From the NCBI GenBank assembly GCA_963836235.1, contig CAWIIP010000001.1, forward strand, positions 192,001 to 256,000: DNA of 64,000 nt, read 5' to 3'. Made by a program: the position numbers and the translations under genes. The notes beneath the pieces were generated by a model. It was not told where the DNA came from, ran no database searches, and worked only from the letters and a program-made list of their open reading frames with translations. The first letter of the stretch is position 1, and each line of letters starts with the position of its first letter. Shown here piece by piece: positions 30,948-59,285 of this stretch. The stretch is from an uncultured Pseudomonadota bacterium. GTDB lineage: Bacteria; Oederibacteriota; Muellerivitia; Muellerivitales; Muellerivitaceae.

Positions 30948-31547
30948 TCCGTTAAAACAAGTTTCCGTTGAAAATTAGTGTAATTTTTCGGTTGTCTATT
31001 TTTTGAGAGCGTAAAATGAGTGGATTGTTTTGTCCACGACGGGGACCCAGCGCGCCAAGAAAGCTGTTGCTCATCCAGTCGGCTGAAATGTGCCGACCCA
31101 GACAAAATTTGGCAGTCTGGTAGCAGGGAGCCGAATCGGGCAGGGTAACCTGCCAGGTTCAAGCGGCTCGACAAAGGGCGGCAAAGCGCCCGATGCGAAA
31201 GGACGGGTCGTAACACGTGTGAACCTAGGTGTAACCTCGTAACGTCGAGATTGAGGAGGGTGACCCTTTTGGGTCTTGGGGAAACCAGTATTCCATGCGG
31301 GAGCCAGAAATACGCATGGGACTGCTTCGGGGTAACAGGGGCGACACGTCCAGACGGAGAACAACGGAACTTGGGAGACCCATAGGGAAGCACAAGGTAC
31401 CTGCCTATAAGTCTAAGCGGCGAAATGGCAGGGAGAGCCTATGGGAGTCAGACAAGCCTACAGTAGCTATGAGGGCTAGGACTAAACCTAGTCAGAGCAA
31501 AGGGGCTTGACCTGGGTAGAGCTTGGCCAGGAGAGAGGGACAAGGGA

Positions 31548-32858
31548 TTGGCGATGAGCCTAGTAACCCTACAAAAAGTTCAGGATCTTCAGCACAAGCT
31601 AGCTGGGAGGAGTAAGTCAAAGCCGAAAGAACGTTTCTACAGTCTCTACGACAAGGTGTGCCGGAAAGAGGTTCTGTGGGAAGCATGGCAGAAGGTGAAG
31701 GGCAATGGAGGTTCCGGAGGAGTGGACGGGGTAACGGTGGAAGGTATAAAGGCCACCGGAGAGAAGGAATACCTGCGGGCACTCTGGACGGAGCTGAAGG
31801 AAAAGGAATATAAGCCATTGCCGCTCAGGCGGGTTTGGATACTAAAGGCCAACGGGAAGAAAAGGCCCTTGGGGATACCGACGGTGAAAGACCGGATTGT
31901 ACAGCAAGCGGTACGATTCGTTATGGAGCCGATCTTCGAGGCGCACTTCTCGGAAGTGTCCTTTGGATTCAGGCCAGGCCGGGACTGCCATCAGGCCATC
32001 ACCAGAGTGGTGACATACCTAAATTGGGGTATGGTGAACGTGGTTGAGACGGACATTGTGGACTGCTTCGGAAGTATCCCACATGGAAGGCTGTTGAAAG
32101 CGGTGGCTCGCAGGATAGCCGACAAAGGTATCCTGAGGGTGATCCGGCAATGGCTGAAATGCGGGGTGATGGAAGAAGGGCAGTTCCAAGAAACGACCAC
32201 GGGAACGCCTCAAGGAGGGGTGATTTCGCCGCTTCTGGCGAATATTTACCTGGATGCGCTGGATCAACTTTGGAAGAAGCGGAAGATGGATTCCAAAAGC
32301 GGATACAACGCCCAAATGGTCAGATACGCCGATGACATGGTAATTCTCACGGATCGGAGCCCCCGGGAGGCGGAAAGGCTGCTGAGGGAAACCTTGGGCA
32401 GACTGGATTTGAAGCCTCACCCGGAAAAGACGCGGGTGGTGAACGCAAAGGCAGGGGATTTTAACTTTCTGGGGTTCAATTTCCGACAGCGGAAGAATCC
32501 CCGAACAGGGAGAAGCCAATGCCTGTTTCAACCCTCGCAGAAGGCCCAAAAGAATGTGCGGGAGAAAATCAGACTGGCTACAGCAAGCCCGGAGTTAAAT
32601 GAACTGGGTAAGGTGGTCAGAGAGAAAGTTAATCCCATTCTGAGAGGGTGGGTGAATTACTTTCGGATCGGAAACTCCAGCAAAACTTTTAATAATCTCC
32701 GGAACTTTGCAAAGAAGAGAGTCCTGCGATTTATTCGCAGGAGGAAGAAACAAAGCGGGCCAGGTTGGGACAGGATCAGCGAGGATTTCCTTTATGGGAA
32801 GCTGGGCCTGTTTAAGGAATACCGGGTGAAATGGTTTTCTCAACCCGCTGTGGCTTAG
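31548..32858 (+). CDS. ltrA: Group II intron reverse transcriptase/maturase (no HNH domain)
   Basis: GVDG, RPLGIPTVKDR, SFGFRPGR, GTPQGGVISPLLANIYL, RYADD, FLGF and domain X (LRGWVNYF). Confidence 0.95.
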   Translation: MAMSLVTLQKVQDLQHKLAGRSKSKPKERFYSLYDKVCRKEVLWEAWQKVKGNGGSGGVDGVTVEGIKATGEKEYLRALWTELKEKEYKPLPLRRVWILKANGKKRPLGIPTVKDRIVQQAVRFVMEPIFEAHFSEVSFGFRPGRDCHQAITRVVTYLNWGMVNVVETDIVDCFGSIPHGRLLKAVARRIADKGILRVIRQWLKCGVMEEGQFQETTTGTPQGGVISPLLANIYLDALDQLWKKRKMDSKSGYNAQMVRYADDMVILTDRSPREAERLLRETLGRLDLKPHPEKTRVVNAKAGDFNFLGFNFRQRKNPRTGRSQCLFQPSQKAQKNVREKIRLATASPELNELGKVVREKVNPILRGWVNYFRIGNSSKTFNNLRNFAKKRVLRFIRRRKKQSGPGWDRISEDFLYGKLGLFKEYRVKWFSQPAVA

Positions 32859-32886
32859 ACGAAGGGCCTCCGGTGAATACCCTTGG

Positions 32887-32920
32887 AAAGCCGTATGCGG
32901 GAAAACCGCACGTACGGTTT
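32887..32920 (+). ncRNA. Group II intron catalytic domain V
   Basis: AAAGCCGTATGCGGGAAAACCGCACGTACGGTTT with the AGC triad and AC bulge. Confidence 0.9.
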
Positions 32921-33050
32921 GATGAGGAGGCGTTGGAAACGTGCCGGTTATCCGGTGACGCGCCAGTGCTTTACTCTATTCGTGGACAAAGAAAAAAGGA
33001 TAATGGACCTATATTTTGATGTGCCTAAAATAAATCAAGAGGAGGTCATT

Positions 33051-34835
33051 CTATCCTTTCCTGATATATTTCCTTGGGGAAGTTCCGAAAGCTCTACGGA
33101 ATATGATGGAAAAGGTACTGGCCGAAGCGAAGCCGCATTCCTGCGCGATCCTTTCCAATGTCAAGTCACCCTCCTTCAAGAGAGATTCAGCTTTCGATAA
33201 CCGGGCTTTACGCACATAGCGCCCGAAAGATTGTCCCGAAACTTTCATGAACCATTTCAGGAAAGTCGGAGGCGACAGTTCGGCTCTTCGACTGAGCTTT
33301 GAAAGACGCCAAGGTTTGTGCGGCTCCTTGTTGATATCAAAGAGAATGGTGTTCAACCGAGCCGTGACCGAGGCATCCCTGGGCTTATCCTGGTAACGGA
33401 CTAAGCTGTCAATGGATTCCTTAAAGGCGTTGACGAGGTCCGGCAGGGTGTTGGCCGAATCCAAACGATCCATCAATTCCGTACCCAGGGTCCTTACCGC
33501 GGACTGACCTATTCCCGTGCGGCGCTCGAATTGTTCCAAAAGGACATAAAGGGCGGAAAGCATATAGGCTTTTGTTATTTCCGGGCCATAGCCGGTATAA
33601 AGAAGCTGGTAGATGAAATTTTCCCTTGAGCGGGCCAGGCGGGCCGGAGATGAATGGGCCATGGATAAGCTAAGTTCCCGGATGAGGTTCTGAATTTTGG
33701 GCATGGACATTACCATCGGCGGGGACGAGTGGGTTCCGGAGAAGAGAATGTTTTTTCCCTCCTGTACGGCGGTGTGCATTGAAGCCACAGCCTCATTATA
33801 AGAATGGAGTAGGTTAGTCCCTTGGGGCATGAGTGGTCCGACACCGGCAATAATGGGTATTTGAAGTTTCTGTTCGAGGGTTTTACAAAGGGCCTGGATT
33901 TTTTCCCTAATCTCGATCCTGGCCTGGGCGGATGGCTGATTGGGCTTGGCGGAAGTCAAGACAGTGGCTGCGTAGTCACCAAGGGGAGAGCAAGCGATTT
34001 CTCCCAATTCGCGGGTGGTTAGGTAACATTCATGCTGGAATTTCCGGGCCTGGCTGAGGACCTCCAGCGATCCCACGTTGAGTCCGGGTTTTCGGGGCAT
34101 GAGGGCCGCCACAATTGTTGGAACGCGGCTGACGCCGACTTCCTCTTTGATCCATTGGGGTATGACATACCCCTTGTCGGGCTTGGCGAAGAATTTCTCC
34201 TTCCCCACGGCCCAATCCACCCAATAGGGATGGGGCAGTTGGCGAGAAAATACCTCCACCCTTAACCGGTCCAGTTCCCGTCCGATCCCTGGCGCCTGCC
34301 TTTCGTTAATCCAAAGCACTAAAAGTTCCATCAGGCGGATATAGCCTTCCAGCCCTTTCTGGTTCAGGACAGGTGAGTTCAAGGCCACCCGGGTAAAGTG
34401 CAGGAAATCCCGGTCCAAATCCGAACCTTCCACCCCGGTCCAGGCCTTCCATTGCAATCGGAGGTTGTCAACGGTCAAGCATTTTTCCAAAACGGGCCCG
34501 GAAATCAGGCAACCCCTGTACCGGCCTTTCTCATGGAAAGGAACAAACAGGTCGATGTAATCCCCGAAACGCCCGGCAAAGGGGCGTTTTTCGTTCCGCG
34601 CCTTTTTGAAGTTGGACCGCATGTAGCGGTCATGACCGGCCGACTTTCCGAAAAAAATTCCGAAAGTGGAGGGATAGAGATGACCCTCGGGCGTGAAGAG
34701 AAACCACCATTCGGTGACCTCGGCGTTCACGAAATAACAGGGCCGCCCGATAAAACGTTGGAATAGGACCTGGAATTTGGAAAAAATTTGAAATTCGTTC
34801 AATGGTTCATTCGGCGAATTTTTTTTCCTGGTCAT
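33051..34835 (-). CDS. AraC-family regulator with PocR-like sensor (paralog of 14158)
   Basis: Colinear with 14158 (DLFVPF...CLISG, HPYWVDWAVG, GVSRVPT); C-terminal AraC HTH; divergent from the GH74/GH44 genes. Confidence 0.8.
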   Translation of the reverse strand: MTRKKNSPNEPLNEFQIFSKFQVLFQRFIGRPCYFVNAEVTEWWFLFTPEGHLYPSTFGIFFGKSAGHDRYMRSNFKKARNEKRPFAGRFGDYIDLFVPFHEKGRYRGCLISGPVLEKCLTVDNLRLQWKAWTGVEGSDLDRDFLHFTRVALNSPVLNQKGLEGYIRLMELLVLWINERQAPGIGRELDRLRVEVFSRQLPHPYWVDWAVGKEKFFAKPDKGYVIPQWIKEEVGVSRVPTIVAALMPRKPGLNVGSLEVLSQARKFQHECYLTTRELGEIACSPLGDYAATVLTSAKPNQPSAQARIEIREKIQALCKTLEQKLQIPIIAGVGPLMPQGTNLLHSYNEAVASMHTAVQEGKNILFSGTHSSPPMVMSMPKIQNLIRELSLSMAHSSPARLARSRENFIYQLLYTGYGPEITKAYMLSALYVLLEQFERRTGIGQSAVRTLGTELMDRLDSANTLPDLVNAFKESIDSLVRYQDKPRDASVTARLNTILFDINKEPHKPWRLSKLSRRAELSPPTFLKWFMKVSGQSFGRYVRKARLSKAESLLKEGDLTLERIAQECGFASASTFSIIFRRAFGTSPRKYIRKG

Positions 34836-35082
34836 AGAATCTCCACCCGCGCGGCATAAGAGTTTAAAGCGGTTTAGTATAACGTGTTAATGATTTTATT
34901 ATTATAAAACAAGTATTTAACTGAAATAAAATCTAATTTTTTCCGCTCTGGTATCCTTCATCAATAATCCTAAAACTTCTTTGAGGGATTTTTGATGGAT
35001 CGAAGTGAACCGGGTTACATGAGTTGTTTCATTTTACTTAAGGGTTGAAACTCATAACGTTTGATAAGGCGAATTTCTTGAA

Positions 35083-38000
35083 ATGAAAATTCGAACATTT
35101 TCCCTATTAGTAAAAGCGCTTCCGCTCTGGCTGGTGTTTGCCTGCTCCCAAGCCTTAGCCCAAACCTACACCTGGCAAAACGTCCCCGTCCCGGGAGGCG
35201 GGTTCGTCGCGGGGCTCGTCTATAGCCGCGCCGTCTCGGGCCTGATCTACGCGCGCGCCGACATAGGCGGTTTCTACCGATGGGACAGCGCCACCAGCCT
35301 GTGGATCCCACTGATCGACATGTACGGGATCAGCCAAGTCACCTACTTCGGGGGGGAGAGCATCGCACCGGATCCGACGAATGCCAACAATGTCTACGCG
35401 GCGGCCGGAATGTATGAGGGCAGCGGAAATGGGGTGATCCTTTCCTCTACCAACCAAGGCAACACCTGGACCATCAATTCCATCCCAGTCCCCATGGGTG
35501 GCAACGAGGACGGCCGCCAAGCGGGGGAGCGGCTGGTGGTGGACCCGAACTTAAACAGCATCCTCTATTTCGGCTCCCGCGACAACGGACTTTGGAAAAG
35601 CACCAACTCGGCGGCGAGCTGGAGCCAGGTAACTTCCTTTCCGACCAACGGGGACGCGGGTTATGGCATTACCTATGAGATTTTCCTTCCGGGCGGAAAC
35701 CCAGGCGCCGGAGCTGAAACTATTTTTGTGGGCGTGGATTCCATGAACGCCGGGAACAGCAGCCTATACCGTTCCACCAACGCCGGCGGCACTTGGACTG
35801 TGGTTCCAGGCGGACCCACTAACATGATTACACCGCATGCGTCCCTAGGAACCGACGGAAATTTGTGGGTGGCCTATGACAGCGGCGGCTATGGTCCCGG
35901 AGGAATCACGAACGGCCAAATTTGGAAACTCAATACCTCGACCCTCGCCTGGACCAACGTGACTCCCGCCGGCGGGCCGGCCTCCCCCAACGGCGGATAT
36001 GGCGACGTTAGCGTGGACGCCGAGAACCCCCAGCACGCCGTGGCCTCCACACTGGATTGGTGGAGCGGTCCGGACAAGGTCTTCCAGACGGTCAACGCGG
36101 GGGCAAGCTGGACGATCATCGCCAACATTACCGAGGGTTGGAATGCCGGGCCTTTCTCGGTCTATAACGACAACGGCGCCATTTGGACCCTGGGCTGCGG
36201 CACCGAAGCCGGAGGGACGGGTTGGGCGGGGAACTGCAAGATCGATCCCTTCAATTCAAACAACGCCTTTTACACGTCGGGGGGTGAACCGGGGGGCGGC
36301 GGGCTTTGGTTCAGCGGCAACATCAATGCCGCCACGCAGCCCGCGGGGGTCACCTGGACTTTCGACACCTATGGCGAGGAGGAAACGGCGCCCATTTTCC
36401 TGCCCGCTTCCGCGGCGGGCGGGGTTTTCTTCAGCGCCGTGGGTGACATCGCCGGTATGCGCTACACCAACGTCACCCAGCCTTCGACTTCAGGAGCTTA
36501 TTGCAACCCGCAATTTGGCAGCATGACCGGCGTGGATTTTGCCGAGCTGAACACGAACGACGTGGTGCGGATAGGCAGCAGCAACACGACCACTTCGGAC
36601 GTGGCCTATTCCACCAATAACGGCCAGACATGGAGCCCCTGGGGTAGCGCCCCGCCGGGTTACGGCACGGCCAACCAGATGGGTTCGGTCGCTGTCGCGG
36701 CGGACGGGTCCCACGTGGTGGTCAGCCCTTATAACGGATACGGCTCGCCGGCTTACGCCTCCTCTCTCGGGGGGGCCTGGACCACCTGCGCGGGGCTTCC
36801 CAGCGGTTCCATGCTGGCCGCCGACCGGGTCAGCCCCGCCACGATCTACGCCACCTATCCCCAGGAGCCGGGAAACGGCCCTTTGTCCGTTTACGTGAGC
36901 ACGAATTACGGGGCGAGTTTTACCCTGGTGAATACGATCACGAACACGGGCGCGATTCCGGCCCCGGGCTGGTACGAAGTATTTCCCCGGGCCGTTTTCG
37001 GCCAGGCCGGGGAATTTTGGGTCAACTCGATGAATCTGTACCGCTACACGAACGCCGGGGCCACCAGAACCCAGATCGCCAACGTCACCGGCGCCCTCGG
37101 TGTTGGGTTCGGCAAGGCCGACAGCCCCACCTACACCCATCCGGCGGTTTACCTGATCGGGACCGTCGGCGGGACATACGGATTCTTCCGCTGTGATGAT
37201 GGGGTCGGCACCACCTGGACCCGGATCAACGATGCCAACCACCAGTACGGGGACGCGATGGGTATTGAAGGGGACGAAACCGTTTACGGCCGCGCCTATG
37301 TCGGAGCCGGGGGCCGGGGTATTCTTTACGGGGATATTCCGGCCGGCACACCAACGAATACCCCCACCTCCACGCCCACGAAAACACCAACCAACACTCC
37401 CACCAAGACTCCTACAAACACTCCCACCAATACGCAAACCAATACCGTGACGAATACCCCTACTAAAACGCCTACCAATACCCCAACCAACACCTCTACT
37501 TTGACGCAAACCAATAGTCCTACCATGACACGAACGAATAGTCCCACGAATACGGCGACCGCTACTCCTAGTTCGACCGCGACCTCCAGCCCAACGGCCA
37601 CTCGGACCAATTCGGCCACGAATACCGTTACCTCCACAGCCACTTCCGCCCCTTCCAACACGGTGACGGGCACGACAACGGCCACCAGGACCAACACGGC
37701 TTCGGCTACCGCAACAAGTACAATGGCGAACACTTCAACGTCCACCCCGTCAAATACCGCCACTCGAACCATCATGGCGACAGCTACCAATACTTTAGTC
37801 AATACAACCACCAACACAGCCACCAAAACGGCAACTTCCACTCCCACCAATACTATGACCAACACGGTGACCAATACCGTCACTTCCACGGCCACCCCTA
37901 CCGAATCCAACACGTACACCAACACACCCACTTCCACCTCTTCCAACACAGCGACGGGCACGACAACGGCCACCAGGACGAACACGGCCTCGGCTACCGC

Positions 38001-39111
38001 AACAAATACAGTGGCGAACACTTCAACGTCCACCCCGTCAAATACCGCTACTCAAACCATCACGGCGACAGCTACCAATACTTTAGTCAATACAACCACC
38101 AACACAGTCACCAAAACGGTAACTTCCACTCCCACCAATACTATGACCAACACGGTGACCAATACCGTCACTTCCACGGCCACCCTTACCGAGTCCAACA
38201 CGTTCACCAGCACACCCACTTTCACCCCTTCCAACACCGCCACCCCAACCCCCACGAATACAGTCACCAATACCGATAGCCCCACCATTACTTCCACGCC
38301 CACTAATACCAATGTGATTACGCCGACTTATACCGGTACGGCCACCAACACACCTACCTCCACAGCCACTAACACGGCCACCAAGACCGCCACTTCCACC
38401 CCAACCAATAGCTTGACGGACACGGCCACTCCAACCGCCACAGCCACCGCGACGGCTTCCACTACACCGACTCCGTCCCCCACGGAAACTCCGTCGGCTA
38501 CTCTCACCGCTACGCTTTCAGCTTCGCCAACGGCCACCACGACCGCCTCGAACACGGCGACTAAAACAACGACTCCCACAACCACCAGCACTTTGACCCC
38601 AACGGTAACCACCACGCCCACCGATACCCTGGTGAACACGGCCACCCAAACCGCCACGGCTACTCCCACCAGCAGCTGGACGAATACCGCCACTCATACG
38701 GCGACCGCCAGTGCCACTTCCACACTCACCCCAACCCCTTCCAGCACGTCCACGAACAGCCCGACCCCCGCCTTGACGGCGATAGCCACTGCGACCTCAA
38801 CGGTACTTCCATCCTCCACTTCCACACCTTCGGGAAACAAAGGGGTGGTGATTTACCCCAATCCGGTCACGGGTCCTACGGTGAATGTGCTTCCACCGGC
38901 CTATACGGGGGTTTCGAACGTGGAGGTGGAAATCTTCACGACGGCGTTCCGGAAGGTGCAGGAAGAGACCTTCCCGAACGTGCCATCGGGCACGGCGGTG
39001 AGGGTGCAATTGACCGACAGATGGGGAACGCCCCTGGCCAACGGGCTTTACTACGTCGTGGTCATCGTCGACGGCCATCGTTCCTTCGGCAAACTTCTGG
39101 TTTTGAGATAA
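35083..39111 (+). CDS. Secreted GH74 xyloglucanase + ~495-aa Thr stalk + T9SS-like CTD
   Basis: [28 protein letters not shown]; paralog of 4314; YPNP...LANGLYY...KLLVLR. Confidence 0.88.
37640..38240 (+). repeat. 288-bp (96-aa) tandem duplication in the stalk
   Basis: GCCACCAGGA occurs at 37681 and 37969 with near-identical flanks; boundaries approximate. Confidence 0.75.
38338..39074 (+). repeat. 737-bp direct repeat (stalk + CTD), second copy at 41432-42168
   Basis: Offset of 3094 at both ends; no differences seen by eye. Confidence 0.9.
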
Positions 39112-39115
39112 GTGA

Positions 39116-42100
39116 ATGGGAAGAATTCTAAATTTTTACTCTTGGACGATGCTGGCTTTTCTTGCCGCGGCGGGAAACGCCTATTCGCAGGTTACCGTCA
39201 CCTTCACGGTTGACCCAAGCCAGAACAACAACCCCATTTCCCCCTATATCTACGGTTCCAATTTCACTATCCCCGGCGTCACCAATACGCTTTACCGTCA
39301 GGGAGGAAACCGGCTGTCCGCCTATAATTGGGAAACCAACTGGTCCAATGGCGGATCGGACTGGTATTACGAAAACGACACCAACATGGGAAACAAGGCC
39401 GACGGCGCCTCCTGGGCTGTTACTAATTTCGTCGGTCAAAATAAAGCGTTAGGCGCCGATTCACTGGCGACCCTTCAGCTGGTGGGTTACGTTTCGGCCA
39501 ACGGCGAGCCGTCCGTGCAGGTTCCCGCGGCCGACTTTATGACAGCCCCCGGCCTCACCGATCCCAACGGCAATTTTTTCCAAACCATCCTCGCCAAACC
39601 CGGGGCGCCCGCTTCCTATTCCACCCCGCCCGCCACCGTCGGCCCGGTGGTGTATACCGACGAGATGGTCAACGATGTGGTCAAACTCATCGGCAGTTCT
39701 ACCAGCGGCGGAGTCAAATTCTGGGATTTGGACAACGAACCAGGGGTCTGGCCAGGTACACACAAGGAAGTCCACAACTACCCGGTGAGCTATGTTGAGG
39801 TCGCGGGCAAGGGGATTACGGAAGCCACGCAGGTCAAGGCCATCGACCCCGGCGCGAAAATTTTAGGGCCGGTGGCCTACGGGTGGGGGGATTTCATGAG
39901 TTTGGGCGGCGCGCCCGACCAAAACGCCTCCTATGCCACCCCCTACAAAAACGGCTGGACCCCGTGGGTCAACTATTACCTGGCCATGATGAACCAGGCC
40001 TCCGTGTCCCAGGGGGTCCGGCTACTGGACTACCTGGATTTGCACGTCTACTCGGAAGGCACCGACGCTGCGGGCAACCGGATCAATAACACCGACGTTA
40101 GCCAGGACGCGGCCACCACCCGCATGCAGCTTCCCCGCGAAATGTGGGACTCGACCTACACTGAGAACAACTGGATCTCCTGCTGCGTGCCCAGCTACGG
40201 GCCCATGACCCTGATACCCCGACTGGAAGCGACCATTAACCAGTATTACCCAGGCACCAAGATCGCCTTCTCCGAATACGGTTACGGGGGGAATGGGGAC
40301 ATCTCGGGGGGAATCGCGGAGGCGGATTTCCTGGGCATCCTGGGCAAATACCCGAACATGATGGCCTGCATCTGGCCTGGGGGAACCGAAACCTACCTCA
40401 CCTGCGCCTTCAACTTTTACCTGAATTACGACGGAAGCGGCTCCAAGTTCGGGACTACTTCCGTCCTGGCCAATTCCAACAACGTACCTGAGGCCACCAT
40501 TTACGCGGCCACCAACAGCGCCAAACCCAACCTCTTAAACGTCATCGTCCTCAACAAGGACTACAGCAACAATACTACGGCCAACGTGAGCCTCTCCAAC
40601 TTAAGCGGGGCGATTGCTTCTATTCGGGCCTTCCGGTTCGATTCGGCCATTTCGGTTATTTCCCCCTCTACAGTGCCAGCCTTCACCGCCAACACCTTCA
40701 CCGACACCCTGCCCTTCCGATCCGCCACCCTCTATGAGCTCACCTTGAGCCAGGCGACCTCCACCCCCACCAACAGCCTTACGTATACCCCTACCTCAAC
40801 TCCAACCCCCACCCGGACCAATACCGCCACCAACACGGCAACCAATAGTCCCACAAAAACTCAGACCAATACTCCAACCAGTACACTCTCATTTACTCCT
40901 ATTAATACGACGGCAAATACGTCGACAACAACACCATCAAGTACCGCTACGCGCACTTCTACGAACACACCTACCAATACCGTAATTCCCAGCGCGACTT
41001 CAACCCCCACCCTCACCGCCACGGCGACACCAACGAAAACCTTAACCAATACCACGACCCTCACCAATACGCCGGCCAATACGGGGACTCCCACCACTAC
41101 CCAAACCGCCACGTTGACACTTTCCAATACCGTCACCAACACGGCTACTTCCTCCGCTACGCGCACCGAAACCTCCACTGCGACCATGACGCCCACTAAT
41201 ACGCTGGCCAATTCTCCCACCAACACCGCTACATCCACAGCCACCTTTACCTCTACCAACACCACCACCCGCATCCCAACGGCGACAGCAACCTATACCG
41301 CCACGAACACAACGACTTCCACGATCACGAACACGGTCTCCAACTCCGGCACGCCGACGCCGTCCGCCACCGGAACTCTTCCAACCTTCACGGATACCCC
41401 AACCTTGACGCCTTCTTTTACGCCGACCGCGACGGCCACCAACACACCTACCTCCACAGCCACTAACACGGCCACCAAGACCGCCACTTCCACCCCAACC
41501 AATAGCTTGACGGACACGGCCACTCCAACCGCCACAGCCACCGCGACGGCTTCCACTACACCGACTCCGTCCCCCACGGAAACTCCGTCGGCTACTCTCA
41601 CCGCTACGCTTTCAGCTTCGCCAACGGCCACCACGACCGCCTCGAACACGGCGACTAAAACAACGACTCCCACAACCACCAGCACTTTGACCCCAACGGT
41701 AACCACCACGCCCACCGATACCCTGGTGAACACGGCCACCCAAACCGCCACGGCTACTCCCACCAGCAGCTGGACGAATACCGCCACTCATACGGCGACC
41801 GCCAGTGCCACTTCCACACTCACCCCAACCCCTTCCAGCACGTCCACGAACAGCCCGACCCCCGCCTTGACGGCGATAGCCACTGCGACCTCAACGGTAC
41901 TTCCATCCTCCACTTCCACACCTTCGGGAAACAAAGGGGTGGTGATTTACCCCAATCCGGTCACGGGTCCTACGGTGAATGTGCTTCCACCGGCCTATAC
42001 GGGGGTTTCGAACGTGGAGGTGGAAATCTTCACGACGGCGTTCCGGAAGGTGCAGGAAGAGACCTTCCCGAACGTGCCATCGGGCACGGCGGTGAGGGTG

Positions 42101-42205
42101 CAATTGACCGACAGATGGGGAACGCCCCTGGCCAACGGGCTTTACTACGTCGTGGTCATCGTCGACGGTCGGCGTTCCTTCGCCAAATTGCTCATTCTTC
42201 ACTAA
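39116..42205 (+). CDS. Secreted GH44 endoglucanase/xyloglucanase + Thr stalk + T9SS-like CTD
   Basis: [51 protein letters not shown]. Confidence 0.88.
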
Positions 42206-42276
42206 ATTTTCATATTCCTGTATTTTTCCTGAGTAAAAAAAGTTGAAATGATGCAGTTGGTCTGAGTATAAAACCT

Positions 42277-42303
42277 TGTCCACGGTGGGACCCGTTTTGG
42301 ACA
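42277..42303. repeat. TGTCCA...GA...TGGACA palindromic site, copy 2
   Basis: TGTCCACGGTGG-GA-CCCGTTTTGGACA; related to the intron target and to 44010. Confidence 0.6.
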
Positions 42304-42330
42304 GGTGAAGAATAGACGTCGGGAGGCCGC

Positions 42331-43971
42331 ATGAGAAGAATAAAGGCTATTTCCATCCTGATGTTCGTTTTTTCCATTCCCCTATTCGCGCTCGCCGAAG
42401 GCCTGGCCCCGGTCCCGCCCATGGGCTGGAACAGCTGGAATGCCTTCGGCATGGACATCAACGAAACCGTCATCCGAAAGACGGCCGATCTCATGGTGAG
42501 TTCAGGTCTTCGAGACGCGGGCTATGTTTATCTCAACCTGGACGATGGCTGGCAGGCAAGCCGGGACGCCCAGGGCGTAATCCAGCCGGACCCGGCCCTG
42601 TTTCCCTCGGGCATGAAGGCCTTAGGGGACTATCTCCATGCCAAGGGACTCAAGTTCGGCATTTACACCTGCGCCGGAACACAGACTTGCGGTAATAGAC
42701 CCGGAAGCAAAGGCCATGAAAAGCAGGATATGGCCACCTATGCCTCCTGGGGCGTGGATTATGTCAAGGTCGACTGGTGCAATACTCAGGGCCTTAATTC
42801 AAAGACCCAATATGCCCTCTTCCGTGAAGGTATAAAGGAAAGCGGGCGGCCCATGGTACTGTCCCTTTGCAACTGGGGCGTGGACAAGCCCTGGCTTTGG
42901 GGAAGAGGGACAGGCCAGCTATGGCGCACCACCAGCGACCTGGTTTCCTGCTGGGATTGCGTGAAGGATTGGGGCGGTGCGGGGATCCTGCCAACGTTGG
43001 ACAAGCAGGTGGGGCTGGAATCCTACTCGGGGCCGGGTGGGTGGAACGACCCGGACATGCTCCAGGTCGGCAACAGTGGCCTGAGCTTGGAAGAGTCCCG
43101 CGCCCATTTCAGCCTTTGGTGCATCCTTGCCGCGCCCCTCATCGCGGGCAATAACCTAGGGGCCATGAAGCCAGGGGTGAGGGAAATTCTCCTGAACCAG
43201 GAGGTCGTCGCAGTGGACCAGGACCCCGACGGCAAACCGGGAACCCGGGTCAAGGATGGGGGAAAGGGCGGGGAGATTTGGGCCAAGCCCCTGAAGGACG
43301 GAGCCTGGGCGGTCTGCCTTTTAAACCGGGGTTTGAAATCCGCCGATGTAGGAATGCTTTGGAAGGGCCTGGGCTTGAAGGATGATCAAATGAAAGTGCG
43401 CGACCTTTGGGCCCACCGGGATTTGGGTGTTTTTGACGGGGGTTATTCGGTCAGCCTGCCTTCCCATGGTGTGGCTTTGCTGAAAGTGAGTAGTAACCAG
43501 CCGGTGCCACTGCCGGTTTTGGACACTTGGAGAATTCGGGCCGGGGGCGAGGACTTCACCGATCACGCTGGCCATGCTTGGTCCGAGGACAAGGCTTTTG
43601 ATGTAGGGGACACCGCGCAAACGGGTCTTACCATCGCCGCAAAGGAGGACCCGGAACTTTACGAAACCGAACGCTGGGGCCCGGACTTCAGCTATGCCTT
43701 CCCGGTTCCACCAGGCAAGTACAAAGTCAACCTCAAGTTCGCCGAAACCTACGTGAAGGAACCCGGCCAGAGGGTTTTCGACGTGGTCATCAATGGGAAA
43801 AAGGTTTTGGACCATTTCGATATCCTCAAGGAAGCCGGGGGGTTCGGAAAGGGAATCGAGAAAAATTTCGCAGAAGTCGAGCCCGATCGCGGGGGCCTGA
43901 TTAAAATCCGGTTTGTTTCAGAAGTCCAAAACGCGAAAGTTTGCGCCATCGAGGCGATCCGGCAGAAGTAA
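42331..43971 (+). CDS. GH27 alpha-galactosidase + C-terminal malectin domain (signal peptide, no stalk or CTD)
   Basis: PPMGWNSWN, LDDGW, GVDYVKVDWC, WRTTSD, WNDPDML; malectin LYETERWG...LKFAE...RVFDV. Confidence 0.92.
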   Translation: MRRIKAISILMFVFSIPLFALAEGLAPVPPMGWNSWNAFGMDINETVIRKTADLMVSSGLRDAGYVYLNLDDGWQASRDAQGVIQPDPALFPSGMKALGDYLHAKGLKFGIYTCAGTQTCGNRPGSKGHEKQDMATYASWGVDYVKVDWCNTQGLNSKTQYALFREGIKESGRPMVLSLCNWGVDKPWLWGRGTGQLWRTTSDLVSCWDCVKDWGGAGILPTLDKQVGLESYSGPGGWNDPDMLQVGNSGLSLEESRAHFSLWCILAAPLIAGNNLGAMKPGVREILLNQEVVAVDQDPDGKPGTRVKDGGKGGEIWAKPLKDGAWAVCLLNRGLKSADVGMLWKGLGLKDDQMKVRDLWAHRDLGVFDGGYSVSLPSHGVALLKVSSNQPVPLPVLDTWRIRAGGEDFTDHAGHAWSEDKAFDVGDTAQTGLTIAAKEDPELYETERWGPDFSYAFPVPPGKYKVNLKFAETYVKEPGQRVFDVVINGKKVLDHFDILKEAGGFGKGIEKNFAEVEPDRGGLIKIRFVSEVQNAKVCAIEAIRQK

Positions 43972-44009
43972 GGATGCTTCCCCATGCCGCAGCGTGTTTT
44001 TGTTGGGGG

Positions 44010-44037
44010 TGTCCACGACGGGGAGGCGTAGTGGACA
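44010..44037. repeat. TGTCCA...GA...TGGACA palindromic site, copy 3
   Basis: TGTCCACGACGGG-GA-GGCGTAGTGGACA; the first 15 nt are identical to 31031-31045. Confidence 0.7.
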
Positions 44038-44436: not shown

Positions 44437-44877
44437 CTAAGAACGATCTTTCTTTAGCCAAGTTTCTTCCAAATAATTTATAAGGGCTTCAAAATGAAGA
44501 ATATCAAGGGGCTTCATGAGATAATCATCGGCAAAGGAGAACCGGGCTTTTAGCAAATCATGATCGCTTCGTGATCCAGTTAAAATAAGGACAGGAATCT
44601 TTTTTAAATTAGAGTCTTCCTTGATAGCAGAAAGGACTTCCCAGCCGCTTTTGTGGGGAAGACCCAAATCCAACAGGATGAAATCGGGTGCGAGATTGTG
44701 TGTATAAATATTCGTGGGCCGGAGATAGTCTAACGCACCTTCGCCGTCAGACACGACGGTTACATGAATCGAACGTTTTGAATGTTCCAACGCGTCTTTC
44801 ATCAACTCCGCATCCGCTGAATTGTCTTCTACTAAGAGAAATTCAACCGGTCTCGTTTGACGGGTTTCCGTTTTCAT
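44437..44877 (-). CDS. Single-domain response regulator (Rcp1-like)
   Basis: LLVEDN, ILLDLGLP, IPVLILT, YLMKP. Confidence 0.9.
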   Translation of the reverse strand: MKTETRQTRPVEFLLVEDNSADAELMKDALEHSKRSIHVTVVSDGEGALDYLRPTNIYTHNLAPDFILLDLGLPHKSGWEVLSAIKEDSNLKKIPVLILTGSRSDHDLLKARFSFADDYLMKPLDILHFEALINYLEETWLKKDRS

Positions 44878-44934
44878 AAAATGCCTCCTTTAAAAACATT
44901 TATTATTGTTTTCAAGCCCAAACCCTCTGGTGCC

Positions 44935-45426
44935 CTAAGGATTCAAATTTCTCAGGGCACCAGGAGGAAGATCCAACCTTATGTCCTTGATCCAATTCTC
45001 CTCGAGATAATTCAACAAAATATTGTATTGAGACCACTCTGTGGGTTTTAAGAGATAAGCGCTCACTCGGGTTTGATAGGCGTTCCATTTGTCGTTGTCA
45101 TGGTTTGAACTTGTCAGGATAAGGGTGGGTATGTCACTTAAGTGATAGGAGTGTTTAATTTCCTGCGCGACTTCGTGGCCATTTTTCCGCGGGATGTTCA
45201 AATCCAAAAGGATAAAATCCGGCCGGAGTGATGATAAATAAGGATTCCTATGGCGCAAATAGTTGAGGGCCTGCTCTCCGTCTTGGACTACATTTAAATT
45301 GATTGTAAATCTTGAATTTTTAAAACTTTCTTTTAGAAGGATCGCGTCACCTGGATTATCCTCGACAAGCAGGATTTCCACAGGTCTTTGCTTCGCGTTT
45401 GATCTGGATTTCTGGATGGTTTTCAT
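44935..45426 (-). CDS. Single-domain response regulator (Rcp1-like)
   Basis: LLVEDNPGD, ILLDLNIP, LILTSS, YLLKP. Confidence 0.9.
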   Translation of the reverse strand: MKTIQKSRSNAKQRPVEILLVEDNPGDAILLKESFKNSRFTINLNVVQDGEQALNYLRHRNPYLSSLRPDFILLDLNIPRKNGHEVAQEIKHSYHLSDIPTLILTSSNHDNDKWNAYQTRVSAYLLKPTEWSQYNILLNYLEENWIKDIRLDLPPGALRNLNP

Positions 45427-45689
45427 TAGGCCTCCGGTTTTCTTTTGTGAAAAAAGTTTAGTGCCGTTGCAAGGCGAAGAAGCTGGAAGGTGGTTTGGAT
45501 CAGTTACTGTTACACAAAAGGATCGGCGTATCCAGCTTCAGTCCATAGAAACTAGGGTAAACCCTAGTTAAAAATATTTTCAATCCCCTGGCGGAATTCC
45601 AATCATTTTTTTCGACCATATAATTATTCGTCGAGAAAGTATGGTAAAAATAGCTCGTGAGGGTTTGGCGTCTCTAGACACCCTTAAAA

Positions 45690-46160
45690 TTAAGTGTTAT
45701 CCATTGCCCTATTAGCTTCGGTTAGAAATCCTTTGAGCCAGATATCTTCGACGTATCTCACTAATCCCAAAAAATCATTCATTTCGGTGGGTTTGACCAT
45801 GTAAAAATTCGCTTTGGATTCATAAGCCTTCCGTTTATCCATATCCGCCAGTGAGGAAGTGAGGACGAGAACGGGTATTTCTCTTAATTTTTCGTCGTTT
45901 TTAATGGCATGAAGGACTTCCAGCCCGCCCATACGAGGCATTTTGAGATCCAAAAGAATCAGGTTGGGCAAAGGCTCAACCCCGTATTCACCAATGTTTT
46001 TGAGGTACTGGACCGCCTCCTCTCCATCCTTTACCCGGGTTATTTCGAGGGGGACTTTTGAGGTCTTAAAAACTTCAAGAGCCATATGGGCATCGGCCAA
46101 ATTGTCCTCGACAAGGAGGATTTTAACCTGATTTTCTTTTTTTAGGGTTGGAATGGCCAT
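45690..46160 (-). CDS. Single-domain response regulator (Rcp1-like)
   Basis: LLVEDN, ILLDLKMP, VLTSS, YMVKP. Confidence 0.9.
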   Translation of the reverse strand: MAIPTLKKENQVKILLVEDNLADAHMALEVFKTSKVPLEITRVKDGEEAVQYLKNIGEYGVEPLPNLILLDLKMPRMGGLEVLHAIKNDEKLREIPVLVLTSSLADMDKRKAYESKANFYMVKPTEMNDFLGLVRYVEDIWLKGFLTEANRAMDNT

Positions 46161-46619: not shown

Positions 46620-51983
<5,364 letters not shown>

Positions 51984-59150: not shown

Positions 59151-59285
59151 AATTCCGGCTATTTTTTTGTGTTGGCTTGTTTTGGACAGGCTCAACCCTT
59201 TGAAGCCGTTCGAGAAAAAGAAAAGCCCTTGGGGGTACCAAAGGCGTTATTACCTCAGAGTTTTTCAACCTCATCAGGAGAAGGC

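Follow-up and report, generated by a model that had tools for sequence, protein, structure and literature searches.

Putative recombination sites of 28 bp around gene cassettes, and a linked short serine recombinase, in an uncultured bacterium

A 28-bp palindromic site recurs in arrays around gene cassettes in the genome analysed here (G000) and in related genomes. Cassettes have been exchanged with breakpoints at the centre of this site, a gene for a short serine recombinase is linked to the ends of arrays, and group II introns are targeted to the sites. These are probably recombination sites that delimit mobile gene cassettes, which a dedicated short serine recombinase would move. The window, that is, the whole stretch of 64,000 nucleotides that was analysed, holds three members of this family.

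The site family and its members in the window

The family consensus is TGTCCACGACGGG-GA-CCCGTCGTGGACA, in which 13-bp inverted arms surround an asymmetric GA. This layout has the geometry of a serine-recombinase site, with inverted half-sites of 12-13 bp and an asymmetric centre of 2 bp. With up to seven mismatches, there are 76 sites in this genome; a 954-kb contig has 22 sites, against none after shuffling. GA occupies the centre of 350 of 367 oriented sites. The site is present in 18 of the 24 other genomes of the same family, in none of the 15 genomes from other families of the phylum, and mostly in records assigned to candidate division FCPU426. It is kept across the family although the synonymous sites of the recombinase gene are saturated.

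In the window, the motif TGTCCA-N14-18-TGGACA has two matches where 0.04 are expected, and none of 100 shuffles reaches two. The three palindromes that the earlier note had described (at 31031 plus 32980, 42277 and 44010) are real; all are intergenic and share the GA orientation. Its gene names also hold, by Pfam for AraC, GH44 and GH27 and by solved xyloglucanases for GH74. The features are as follows.

31031..31049, plus strand: 5′ part of site 1, TGTCCACGACGGGGACCCA, made up of the left arm TGTCCACGACGGG, the central GA and CCCA of the right arm
31050..32979, plus strand: group II intron in site 1, 1930 bp; Rfam RF02005 at 31087-31342 (60.4 bits) and RF00029 at 32886-32979 (51.5 bits)
31548-32858, plus strand: intron protein ORF; Pfam RVT_1 and GIIM (reverse transcriptase, maturase), no endonuclease domain
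32980..32988, plus strand: 3′ part of site 1, TCGTGGACA
33051-34835, minus strand: AraC regulator (Pfam)
35083-39111, plus strand: GH74 xyloglucanase (solved GH74 structures, E 2e-134)
39116-42205, plus strand: GH44 (Pfam)
42277..42303, plus strand: site 2, TGTCCACGGTGG-GA-CCCGTTTTGGACA, 27 bp, with a degenerate left arm that is one base short
42331..43971, plus strand: GH27 alpha-galactosidase with malectin domain (Pfam Melibiase_2, E 1.5e-65), putative cargo of a single-gene cassette
43983..44006, plus strand: small hairpin resembling a terminator, with a T-run, located after the stop of GH27 and before site 3
44010..44037, plus strand: site 3, TGTCCACGACGGG-GA-GGCGTAGTGGACA, of terminal type; left arm as in the consensus, right arm degenerate

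The left half of site 1 matches without mismatches, and the two parts (31031-31049 and 32980-32988), once joined, form a 28-bp site whose exact sequence is found uninterrupted elsewhere in the genome, for instance, at contig C4 57529 and contig C2 1196597. Site 2 is the upstream boundary of the GH27 cassette, with 27 bp from its end to the ATG. The right arm of site 3 is near-identical to GGCGTAGTAGACA, which is the right arm of a recombinase-adjacent terminal site in G022, a genome of another genus. Site 3 itself is not the terminator of GH27; the terminator-like hairpin at 43983..44006 precedes it. Two further suggestions of the earlier note did not last: neither 15-base half-site matches near 59180 with up to three mismatches, and the apparent swapping of arms, literally true, carries no information, since sites 1 and 3 both have the consensus left arm of the family.

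The intron has a second copy at C2 1476563-1478492, 99.9% identical over 1930 bp and at the same position within a site (C2 1476544); both copies in this genome are thus inside sites. Introns of the window type (Rfam D1-D4-6) insert inside the right arm, at CCCA|TCG, while a second type present in relatives (Rfam D1-D4-4) inserts directly after the site. The proposal that introns home to these sites is therefore well borne out, and group II introns devoid of an endonuclease domain use them as homing targets. Class C group II introns are described in a review (PMC4424553) as directed to the stem-loops of terminators and to attC sites. The introns considered here are similar to them in protein domains, having no endonuclease domain, and in place of insertion, which is a palindromic motif or the position just behind it, with a fixed orientation (behaviour also described in PMC4424553); their Rfam matches are to D1-D4-6, D1-D4-4 and domain V/VI. 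They differ in that the target is a 28-bp site.

Arrays, exchanged cassettes and the position of the crossover

Most of the sites lie in co-oriented arrays around cassettes of 0.2-5 kb that carry unrelated genes, and the copies are grouped in about a dozen arrays instead of being dispersed. Of the pairs of neighbouring sites, 53 of 55 in G000 and 208 of 210 from 80 loci of other genomes share one orientation. Most ORFs of 80 aa or more point the same way as the sites (68/76 in G000, 267/305 in the loci of other genomes), and the median length of a unit is 829 and 837 bp, respectively. The distance from site to site ranges from 234 to 5793 bp and the intervals hold whole ORFs, not the short spacers of tens of bases of a CRISPR array, a candidate that was consequently discarded. 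The 74 cassette ORFs match 107 Pfam families, including BrnT, PIN and PemK toxins, so the system is not, as had been suggested, specific for the acquisition of CAZymes.

By contrast, the suggestion that sites mark the boundaries of cassettes is supported by homologous cassettes that end at sites in unrelated contexts. For instance, the copies of a ~1.27-kb cassette at C2 1195352-1196624 and C4 57529-58801 have 100% identity, which begins and ends at the outer edges of the flanking sites. Among 69 homologous pairs of non-neighbouring cassettes, 16 end at sites on both sides, 28 on one side and 25 on neither, and 10 extend at least 150 bp beyond a site. Similarity between cassettes is, in effect, not always bounded by the cassette.

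Some pairs help to locate the crossover. In a pair with 96% identity (C4 135627 and L066 3282), the rare right arm CCCGCATTGGACA travels with the cassette. The left arm of that site shows differences as far as position 11, and the downstream sites disagree from position 18 onwards. A second pair, 100% identical (C4 856661 and L039 1016), agrees with this segregation of half-sites. Since half-sites travel with their own cassette, the crossover falls within positions 12-17, around the central GA. The outer arms of arrays tend to be degenerate: mismatches in the right arm average 2.78 in the last sites of arrays against 1.79 in internal sites. For first sites the effect is modest, with 1.08 against 0.75 mismatches.

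In the window, GH27 behaves as a one-gene cassette. Its homolog in G022, with 84-85% nucleotide identity, has a site upstream and a degenerate site downstream, and the gene upstream is different from that in the window. The partition into [AraC-GH74-GH44] and [GH27] put forward by the earlier note is thus credible for GH27, while the movement of the 11-kb block as a unit is without support; the block between sites 1 and 2 (33051..42205) has an orthologous block in G042 that is 82-87% identical.

A short serine recombinase at the ends of arrays

As the earlier note stated, no recombinase is encoded in the window. The linked serine recombinase gene that it called for lies elsewhere, at C2 163827-164663, with 35 bp between its end and a terminal site. 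No other recombinase gene of G000 adjoins a site, the next nearest being 6.5 kb from one. The encoded enzyme has 278 aa, with Resolvase and Recombinase domains and the catalytic motif YVRVSS. All of its closest clusters (n=19, at least 74% identity) are 275-283 aa long, whereas the next relatives, at 61% identity or less, are often longer and many have a zinc ribbon. A domain search gave no match to the zinc ribbon PF13408 in the short recombinase, which has no coiled coil either. The predicted structure ends in one helix after the recombinase domain; its best matches are large serine recombinases, among them 4kis, whose recombinase domain aligns with an rmsd of 2.9 over 128 columns. The dN/dS of the recombinase is 0.04-0.16.

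The junction between gene and site recurs. In four genera (G000, G022, G042 and G045), the stop codon is 8-37 bp from a terminal site and the gene is convergent with the cassettes; the same junction is found in metagenome contigs L127, L128, L131 and L132, and contig L129 ends inside the recombinase-adjacent site. Other arrangements are a recombinase followed by only a half-site in G001 and a site 111 bp from the recombinase, in the opposite orientation, in L130. Partial recombinase genes or decayed remnants are located at array ends in L024, L033, L065, L056 and L073, and also at C1 399281-399358 of G000, in G018 and, weakly, in G021 (E 0.002). Contigs with the recombinase in metagenomes are often just 1.2-3 kb long.

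Some site-rich relatives lack such a gene. A search for the Resolvase domain had no match in G005 (98% complete), G010 (99%), G021 (90%, 20 contigs) or G023 (89%), and G018 possesses just a fragment and two small serine recombinases that are unrelated and lie away from sites; yet perfect sites are retained in these genomes. This could mean that arrays outlast the enzyme, that the gene was lost from these bins or that another protein reads the sites.

The linked gene supports the reading of the sites as targets of a serine recombinase, and the activity of this enzyme, with cuts at GA and circular intermediates, is what we infer. A cassette would consist of a right arm, a short leader, one or a few genes and a left arm. 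A recombinase dimer would bind each site, with one recombinase domain per 13-bp arm; two sites would then synapse, the four strands would be cut with a 2-base stagger at GA, and rotation of subunits would swap half-sites. As GA is not self-complementary, rejoining would be restricted to sites of like orientation. Direct repeats would release the cassette as a circle with one site, and circles could re-enter any site or pseudo-site in a fixed orientation; such oriented excision and re-entry would therefore produce co-oriented arrays. The GH27 cassette would sit in a former pseudo-site, made up of the degenerate left arm of site 2 and the degenerate right arm of site 3. We know of no demonstrated activity for a serine recombinase with just a catalytic and a recombinase domain.

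It is rather unlikely, but conceivable, that these are true cassette recombination sites of another enzyme (an Xer-like tyrosine recombinase, an unrecognised protein or a solo Cas1) and that the serine recombinase gene just marks a favoured array terminus. Dif-like sites, which are recombined by Xer tyrosine recombinases, have an 11-6-11 layout. Alternatively, the 28 bp can be taken as two 11-bp arms on either side of GGGACC, exactly the interval of positions 12-17, which fits a 6-bp tyrosine-recombinase overlap as well as it fits a 2-bp serine-recombinase stagger. The four site-rich genomes with no Resolvase domain point in the same direction, and G000 has eight tyrosine recombinases, six of which are paralogs at 57-70% identity and one of which is 6.5 kb from the largest array. 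Nevertheless, no tyrosine recombinase abuts a site in G000, the nearest distances being 6.5 to 263 kb, and tblastn over 80 site-centred loci of other genomes detected serine-recombinase pieces at six loci, a tyrosine recombinase at one and a Y1 transposase at two. The integron integrase is absent from the whole genome (best TIGR02249 score 40.9 bits, cut-off 265), and unbiased clustering of 908 ORFs near sites gave no other recurrent enzyme except the intron protein. Regarding Cas1, a solo cas1 gene is placed 44 bp after a terminal site at five loci of three genomes, but the protein is 96-100% identical across four genera and occurs in only 5 of 31 genomes. Being near-identical and rare, it is therefore a recent spreader and not the agent of a family-wide site.

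Other readings and known systems

The sites might instead be bound by a regulator or nucleoid protein, as operators or REP-like elements, and be reshuffled as a by-product of homologous recombination between 28-bp repeats; we consider this improbable. The distance to the next start codon is fairly regular (median 48-53 bp, interquartile range about 27-140), a TATAAA box is immediately 5′ of site 2, and sites are perfect even in genomes without the recombinase. However, the median gap between the site and the upstream stop codon is 17-22 bp, a tighter association than that with the next start, its copies are clustered, and a symmetric operator needs neither an asymmetric centre nor 261 co-oriented pairs of neighbours out of 265. 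In REP elements with RAYT, the gene for a Y1 (HUH) transposase is flanked by repeats and extragenic copies are dispersed; the three Y1_Tnp (RAYT-like) genes found here have no site within 1.5 kb, except for one match with 10 mismatches. In addition, 28 bases is about the lower limit for RecA-dependent exchange, which counts against homologous recombination, and the recurrent recombinase-site junction is left without explanation.

That the palindrome works as a hairpin in RNA or single-stranded DNA, be it a terminator, a processing site or a folded substrate like attC, is highly improbable. The consensus does fold, with a 12-bp stem (-17.7 kcal/mol, z-score -7.3), and class C introns do target terminator stem-loops and attC sites (PMC4424553). 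However, compensatory arm changes are not seen, the sites lack a T-run behind them and are not called in the terminator scan, and GH27 has a small terminator of its own ahead of site 3. In addition, the fold of site 2 does not surpass that of shuffled sequences (z-score -1.3), and sequence rather than structure is conserved, which is the opposite of attC sites. Right-arm variants at positions 19-22 are compensated in 11/88, 2/89, 2/106 and 0/72 unique sequences. Because the arms lack compensatory changes, the 28-bp site is best seen as a putative protein-binding site and not as a selected hairpin.

The solo cas1 gene belongs to a cas1-cas2-like unit that is linked to a second kind of kilobase-spaced array. 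The match of Cas1 to TIGR00287 is strong. Behind its gene come an ORF that weakly resembles Cas2 and then an invariant 37-nt direct repeat, duplicated and in uniform orientation; in the arrays examined, these repeats are 0.7-4.3 kb apart and enclose whole genes. Cas1, the Cas2-like ORF and invariant direct repeats beside the unit are reminiscent of CRISPR arrays and casposons. In contrast to CRISPR arrays, the repeats are kilobase-spaced around genes and there are no effector cas genes, and unlike in casposons, no PolB was seen beside the unit. It is a tentative and rather doubtful idea that two non-integron gene-capture platforms are interleaved within the same arrays, one old and family-wide (the 28-bp site and the minimal serine recombinase, which would shuffle cassettes) and one recently spreading (the Cas1-Cas2-like unit) that would insert whole genes between exact copies of the CRISPR-like 37-nt repeat. 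If true, CRISPR adaptation machinery would be serving as a gene-cassette integrase.

The short serine recombinase and its sites, the reading preferred here, can be compared with several known systems. In serine-recombinase sites, two inverted half-sites of 12-13 bp flank a 2-bp crossover dinucleotide, whose asymmetry sets polarity. The linked enzyme shares the catalytic serine motif and the recombinase-domain fold with the systems that use such sites (res site I, hix/gix, att cores of large serine recombinases). These systems, though, resolve, invert or integrate one element; we know of none that builds arrays of many gene cassettes, and literature searches found none. Large serine recombinases, the group of Bxb1, phiC31 and the Listeria innocua prophage integrase, include the nearest relatives in sequence, with 55-61% identity over about the first 270 residues, and also provide the best matches to the structure model. 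In this group, recognition of the outer half of att sites and control of directionality fall to the zinc ribbon and the coiled coil. The protein described here stops after the recombinase domain (275-283 aa) and has neither, and its site is correspondingly short.

As in integrons, the cassettes are co-oriented, mostly single-gene and of unrelated function, including toxin-antitoxin genes, with a median near 0.8 kb; the recombinase gene is at one end of the array and some arrays have none; group II introns target the sites; and cassettes are common to several genomes. The differences lie in the components. This genome is without IntI and the candidate enzyme is a serine recombinase, encoded at the downstream end of the array and convergent on the cassettes. 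The 28-bp site is conserved in sequence and shows no covariation, whereas attC sites are imperfect palindromes of 57-141 bp in which structure is conserved rather than sequence. The crossover is at the site centre, so that each cassette has two half-sites, while in integrons the cut is at one edge and nearly the whole site goes with one cassette. The system resembles an integron assembled from different parts.

The 28-bp site and its arrays

Three copies of a near-perfect palindromic site, in which 13-bp inverted arms surround a central GA, are carried by the window. One of them (site 1) is split by a group II intron whose ORF encodes reverse-transcriptase and maturase domains and nothing else.

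31031-31049 and 32980-32988: the two parts of site 1
31050-32979: group II intron, 1930 bp, splitting site 1; Rfam domains I-IV at 31087-31342 and domains V/VI up to 32979
42277-42303: site 2, 27 bp
44010-44037: site 3

Joining the flanks of the intron yields a complete 13-GA-13 site, TGTCCACGACGGG-GA-CCCATCGTGGACA, as the earlier note had described. Sites 2 and 3 match the pattern TGTCCA-N14-18-TGGACA, for which 0.04 occurrences are expected in the window against the two observed. The identities which that note gave to the neighboring genes, namely AraC, GH74, GH44, and GH27, were borne out; the possible half-site that it placed at ~59180 has to be dropped, as neither half-site has a match there within 3 mismatches. 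A small terminator that belongs to GH27 precedes site 3. Directly 3′ of this site lie three tandem stand-alone response-regulator receiver genes (44437-46160, minus strand), and beyond them a 1787-aa ORF (46620-51983). Separately, GH44 and GH74 share a 3′-terminal stretch of ~250-370 bp (41934-42303 and 38840-39093; 84-85% identity) with C2:416543-416915 of the same genome (G000, contigs C1 to C5), which is the end of another gene, likewise with a site after it. This stretch probably represents a common C-terminal domain.

In this genome, of which the window is C1:192001-256000, a scan of the kind suggested in the earlier note returned 76 sites in the five contigs (3.97 Mb) at up to 7 mismatches to TGTCCACGACGGGGACCCGTCGTGGACA, most of them grouped into roughly a dozen arrays, the largest with 14 sites. 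As a control, shuffling of a 954-kb contig left 0 sites, against 22 in the real sequence. Neighboring sites are co-oriented in 53 of 55 pairs in G000 and in 208 of 210 pairs in 80 loci of other genomes. Of the ORFs of at least 80 aa, 68 of 76 in the former and 267 of 305 in the latter follow the polarity of the site. The units between co-oriented sites, here called cassettes, have a median length of ~830 bp. A median of 17-22 bp separates the stop codon from the start of the site, and the next ORF begins ~50 bp past it. Regarding cargo, the 74 ORFs scanned gave matches to 107 different Pfam families; hydrolases, repeat proteins, and toxins (BrnT, PIN, and PemK) are among these. Within the site, the left arm and the GA are conserved at 79-100%, while positions 19-22 of the right arm reach merely 57-79%, a pattern that is the same in G000 and in other genomes.

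Of 24 other genomes from the same family, 18 carry the site. The single genome of a sister family has one copy, at 3 mismatches, and 15 genomes from eight other families of the phylum have none; a reversed control pattern gave 0 matches in every genome scanned. When one genome per species was scanned for exact matches, 89 stretches were returned, all from metagenome-assembled genomes, of which most have candidate division FCPU426 in their titles; viral contigs contained 0 exact matches.

Intron targeting of the sites, also proposed in the earlier note, extends beyond the window. Both G000 copies of the window intron interrupt a site at CCCA|TCG and share the orientation of that site. Relatives have a second intron type (Rfam D1-D4-4), which adjoins complete sites on their 3′ side (L045, L048, L061, and L090). 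Introns of this second type occupy three sites in one 8-kb locus and include ORF-less derivatives of ~0.8 kb; a domain-V match is found in 16 of the 80 loci. In another genome, G042, the block orthologous to the AraC side of the window ends in the 3′ remnant of a D1-D4-4-type intron that abuts the conserved flank, with no site at this boundary. A parallel behavior, at terminators and attC sites, is described for class C introns in the review PMC4424553. Insertion sequences also occur in or beside the arrays. A DDE_Tnp_1_4 element of ~1.7 kb is seen in six places, including G000 C1:372133-373512; of the further copies, four are full-length (99.5-99.8% identity), one is truncated, and one is 88% identical. 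An IS66 transposase element is present in two copies (C2:1203253-1204677 and C5:2875-4299).

Cassette mobility and the position of the crossover

That the 28-bp sites are cassette boundaries, and that the cassettes are mobile, is well supported and very probable. For instance, C2 1195352-1196624 and C4 57529-58801 carry a ~1.27-kb cassette for an NHL-repeat protein at 100% identity, and the flanks of the two copies are unrelated past the outer edges of the two sites. Among 69 non-neighbor homologous cassette pairs with at least 85% identity (G000 and the 80 loci), homology is bounded by sites at both ends in 16, at one end in 28, and at neither in 25, and 10 run past a site. In high-identity pairs, the cassette keeps the right arm of its upstream site and the left arm of its downstream site, and the other arms differ. 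When C4 135627 is compared with L066 3282 (96% identity), the differences end at position 11 of the site and restart at position 18; thus, the crossover lies within positions 12-17, which include the GA. The pair C4 856661 and L039 1016 (100% identity) agrees with this segregation of the arms.

Weak outer arms at the ends of arrays are expected if a circle inserts into a pseudo-site. Right arms have 2.78 mismatches at the last sites of arrays against 1.79 at internal sites; for left arms, the difference at first sites is slight (1.08 against 0.75). Sites 2 and 3 of the window, with GH27 as a single cassette, fit this picture of pseudo-site insertion. A GH27 homolog at 84-85% nucleotide identity is found in G022, from another genus, with a site just upstream and a degenerate site downstream, and the gene upstream of that cassette differs from the one in the window.

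An interval of positions 12-17 is equally compatible with a tyrosine recombinase with a 6-bp overlap, and adjacency of such enzymes to the sites was tested in G000 and not found. As an observation in its own right, this genome encodes six paralogous tyrosine recombinases of 366-386 aa with 57-70% mutual identity (C2 508543, C5 272301, C4 244739, C4 195984, C2 1373842, and C2 1185612), of which five are 19-102 kb and one 6.5 kb from the nearest 28-bp site. Palindromic arms might also be read as a hairpin or terminator. This reading was rejected, given missing covariation, as right-arm variants at positions 19, 20, 21, and 22 are compensated in 11/88, 2/89, 2/106, and 0/72 cases among 211 unique site sequences, and given a terminator scan that did not call the sites and the lack of a T-run at them. 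A RAYT/REP reading was tested in G000 and failed.

Public sequencing reads were also consulted. Of the words sampled from the C4 array, no more than 38% were present in the 20 runs consulted, which were from peat, from moss, or unlabelled. In contigs of four runs, every listed joint falls at site coordinates, with sides of only 20-31 letters; since such sides are the repeated site itself, these joints are no evidence of recombination. Read contigs end at sites. The coverage of a 4-kb block (L003 10625-14599) alone is no sign that its neighbors are absent.

A short serine recombinase at array ends

The earlier note had proposed a search for a linked serine recombinase, and one of the two serine recombinases of G000 is indeed found next to an array.

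C2 163827-164663: short serine recombinase, 278 aa, with Resolvase and Recombinase domains and no zinc ribbon; convergent with the cassettes

Its stop codon is 35 bp before a terminal site, and the catalytic motif YVRVSS is present. The best matches of its predicted model (pLDDT 76.6) are large serine recombinases, and the structural matches include the crystal of the phiC31 integrase N-terminal and recombinase domains and the DNA-bound recombinase domain of 4kis. In comparison with large serine recombinases, the candidate enzyme is cut down to two domains. A length of 275-283 aa is common to all 19 protein clusters at 74% identity or more; identity then drops to 61% or less for the next relatives, many of which have a zinc ribbon. 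This uniform length, together with a common end position in the alignment of 10 orthologs and a dN/dS of 0.04-0.16 where dS is measurable, indicates a maintained gene rather than debris.

The junction between recombinase and array is recurrent: the stop codon is followed by 8-37 bp, a degenerate arm, the center, a consensus arm, and cassettes on the opposite strand. It is repeated in G022, G042, and G045 and in the metagenome contigs L127, L128, L131, and L132, while L129 ends inside the site. Partial recombinase genes are located at array ends in L024, L033, and L065, and remnants of the recombinase C-terminus at those of G000 (C1 399281-399358), L056, L073, G018, and, weakly, G021 (E 0.002). 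Some observations, the crossover interval among them, weigh against this enzyme as the one that acts on the sites. G001 has only a half-site after the recombinase gene, and in L130 the site is 111 bp from it in the opposite orientation. No Resolvase domain was found in the site-rich genomes G005, G010, G021, and G023, all with perfect sites among theirs, and the serine recombinases of G018 are all small, unrelated, and distant from its sites. Bins may miss the gene because the metagenome contigs that carry it are often 1.2-3 kb. Integron arrays without an integrase exist and, by analogy, the arrays described here may outlive their recombinase.

No other recombinase of G000 is close to a site, and an integron integrase was looked for in this genome and is absent. 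When 908 ORFs near sites were clustered, the only recurrent enzyme besides the recombinase was the intron protein. A 474-aa ORF beside the largest array, considered as a recombinase, is an IS66 transposase. In 73 loci of related large serine recombinases, the scan gave a 7-mismatch look-alike in L140, L160, and L168, 1209 bp upstream of the recombinase match; the three are the same element, inside an ORF, and were thus taken as chance. Altogether, the whole mechanism, with the short serine recombinase as its enzyme, is favored with moderate confidence.

A cas1-associated repeat and the relation to integrons

A second type of unit adjoins some of the arrays, and the arrays of its 37-nt repeat, together with cas1, are a separate, younger layer than the 28-bp-site cassettes.

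G000 C1:431426-432930 (L009, L213): cas1 unit, 1.5 kb; also in L214, L215, L219, and L222
G000 C4:58813-60814, C2:917797-919302, C1:380527, and C1:405292: 37-nt repeats
G045:C3 60721-77825 (L229) and G012:C6 78386-82698 (L230): 37-nt repeats in relatives

The solo cas1 (346 aa, TIGR00287 251 bits), the sole cas1 of G000, starts 44 bp past the terminal site at C1 432902, and the same junction is found in three G045 loci and one G012 locus. Cas1 proteins from four genera share 96-100% identity. A Cas2 family search of G000 gave no match; the 111-aa ORF after cas1 has a weak, full-length Cas2 match (E 0.018). This ORF is followed by a single invariant 37-nt repeat, CCTGCACATGCCTGTCGCAAAAAGGATAGTGTGCAAC, at which the unit ends sharply in five loci. 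There are 10 copies of the repeat in G000, 9 of them exact, and within the family it is confined to the five genomes with the solo cas1, all of which have it, and one more; Rfam gave no match to it. The repeats are co-oriented and delimit gene-bearing intervals of 0.7-4.3 kb, with one pair just 68 nt apart, and in L231 they are interspersed among 28-bp sites. G000 and G045 share one 885-bp interval at 100% identity, which ends at 37-nt repeats. These arrays may bear on the relation of CRISPR adaptation modules to mobile elements. Separately, G000 (C2:1355284-1363006) and a genome placed in another genus (L232 4301-12023, in G045:C3) share a 7.7-kb segment at 100% identity, with neither repeat at its bounds within the locus examined.

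To our knowledge, integrons alone are well understood among the platforms that stockpile single genes and reshuffle them. The 28-bp system behaves like an integron and has the cassette array in common with integrons, but all other defining integron features are missing here, and the geometry of its site is that of serine-recombinase crossover sites. In the literature searched, no cassette arrays that rely on a serine recombinase are described. If the proposed mechanism is true, an integron-like solution arose independently from unrelated parts, namely a stripped-down serine recombinase and a 28-bp double-stranded site cut at its center. It would have acquired parasites of the integron kind (site-homing group II introns and insertion sequences) and cargo of the integron kind (toxin-antitoxin pairs, enzymes, and CAZymes), and the convergent evolution of gene-capture systems would become directly testable. 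The recombinase, given its very small size and its short, polar site, would then also be a possible tool for genome engineering. Finally, the mechanism would explain the turnover of accessory genes, such as GH27, in this uncultured peat and soil lineage.
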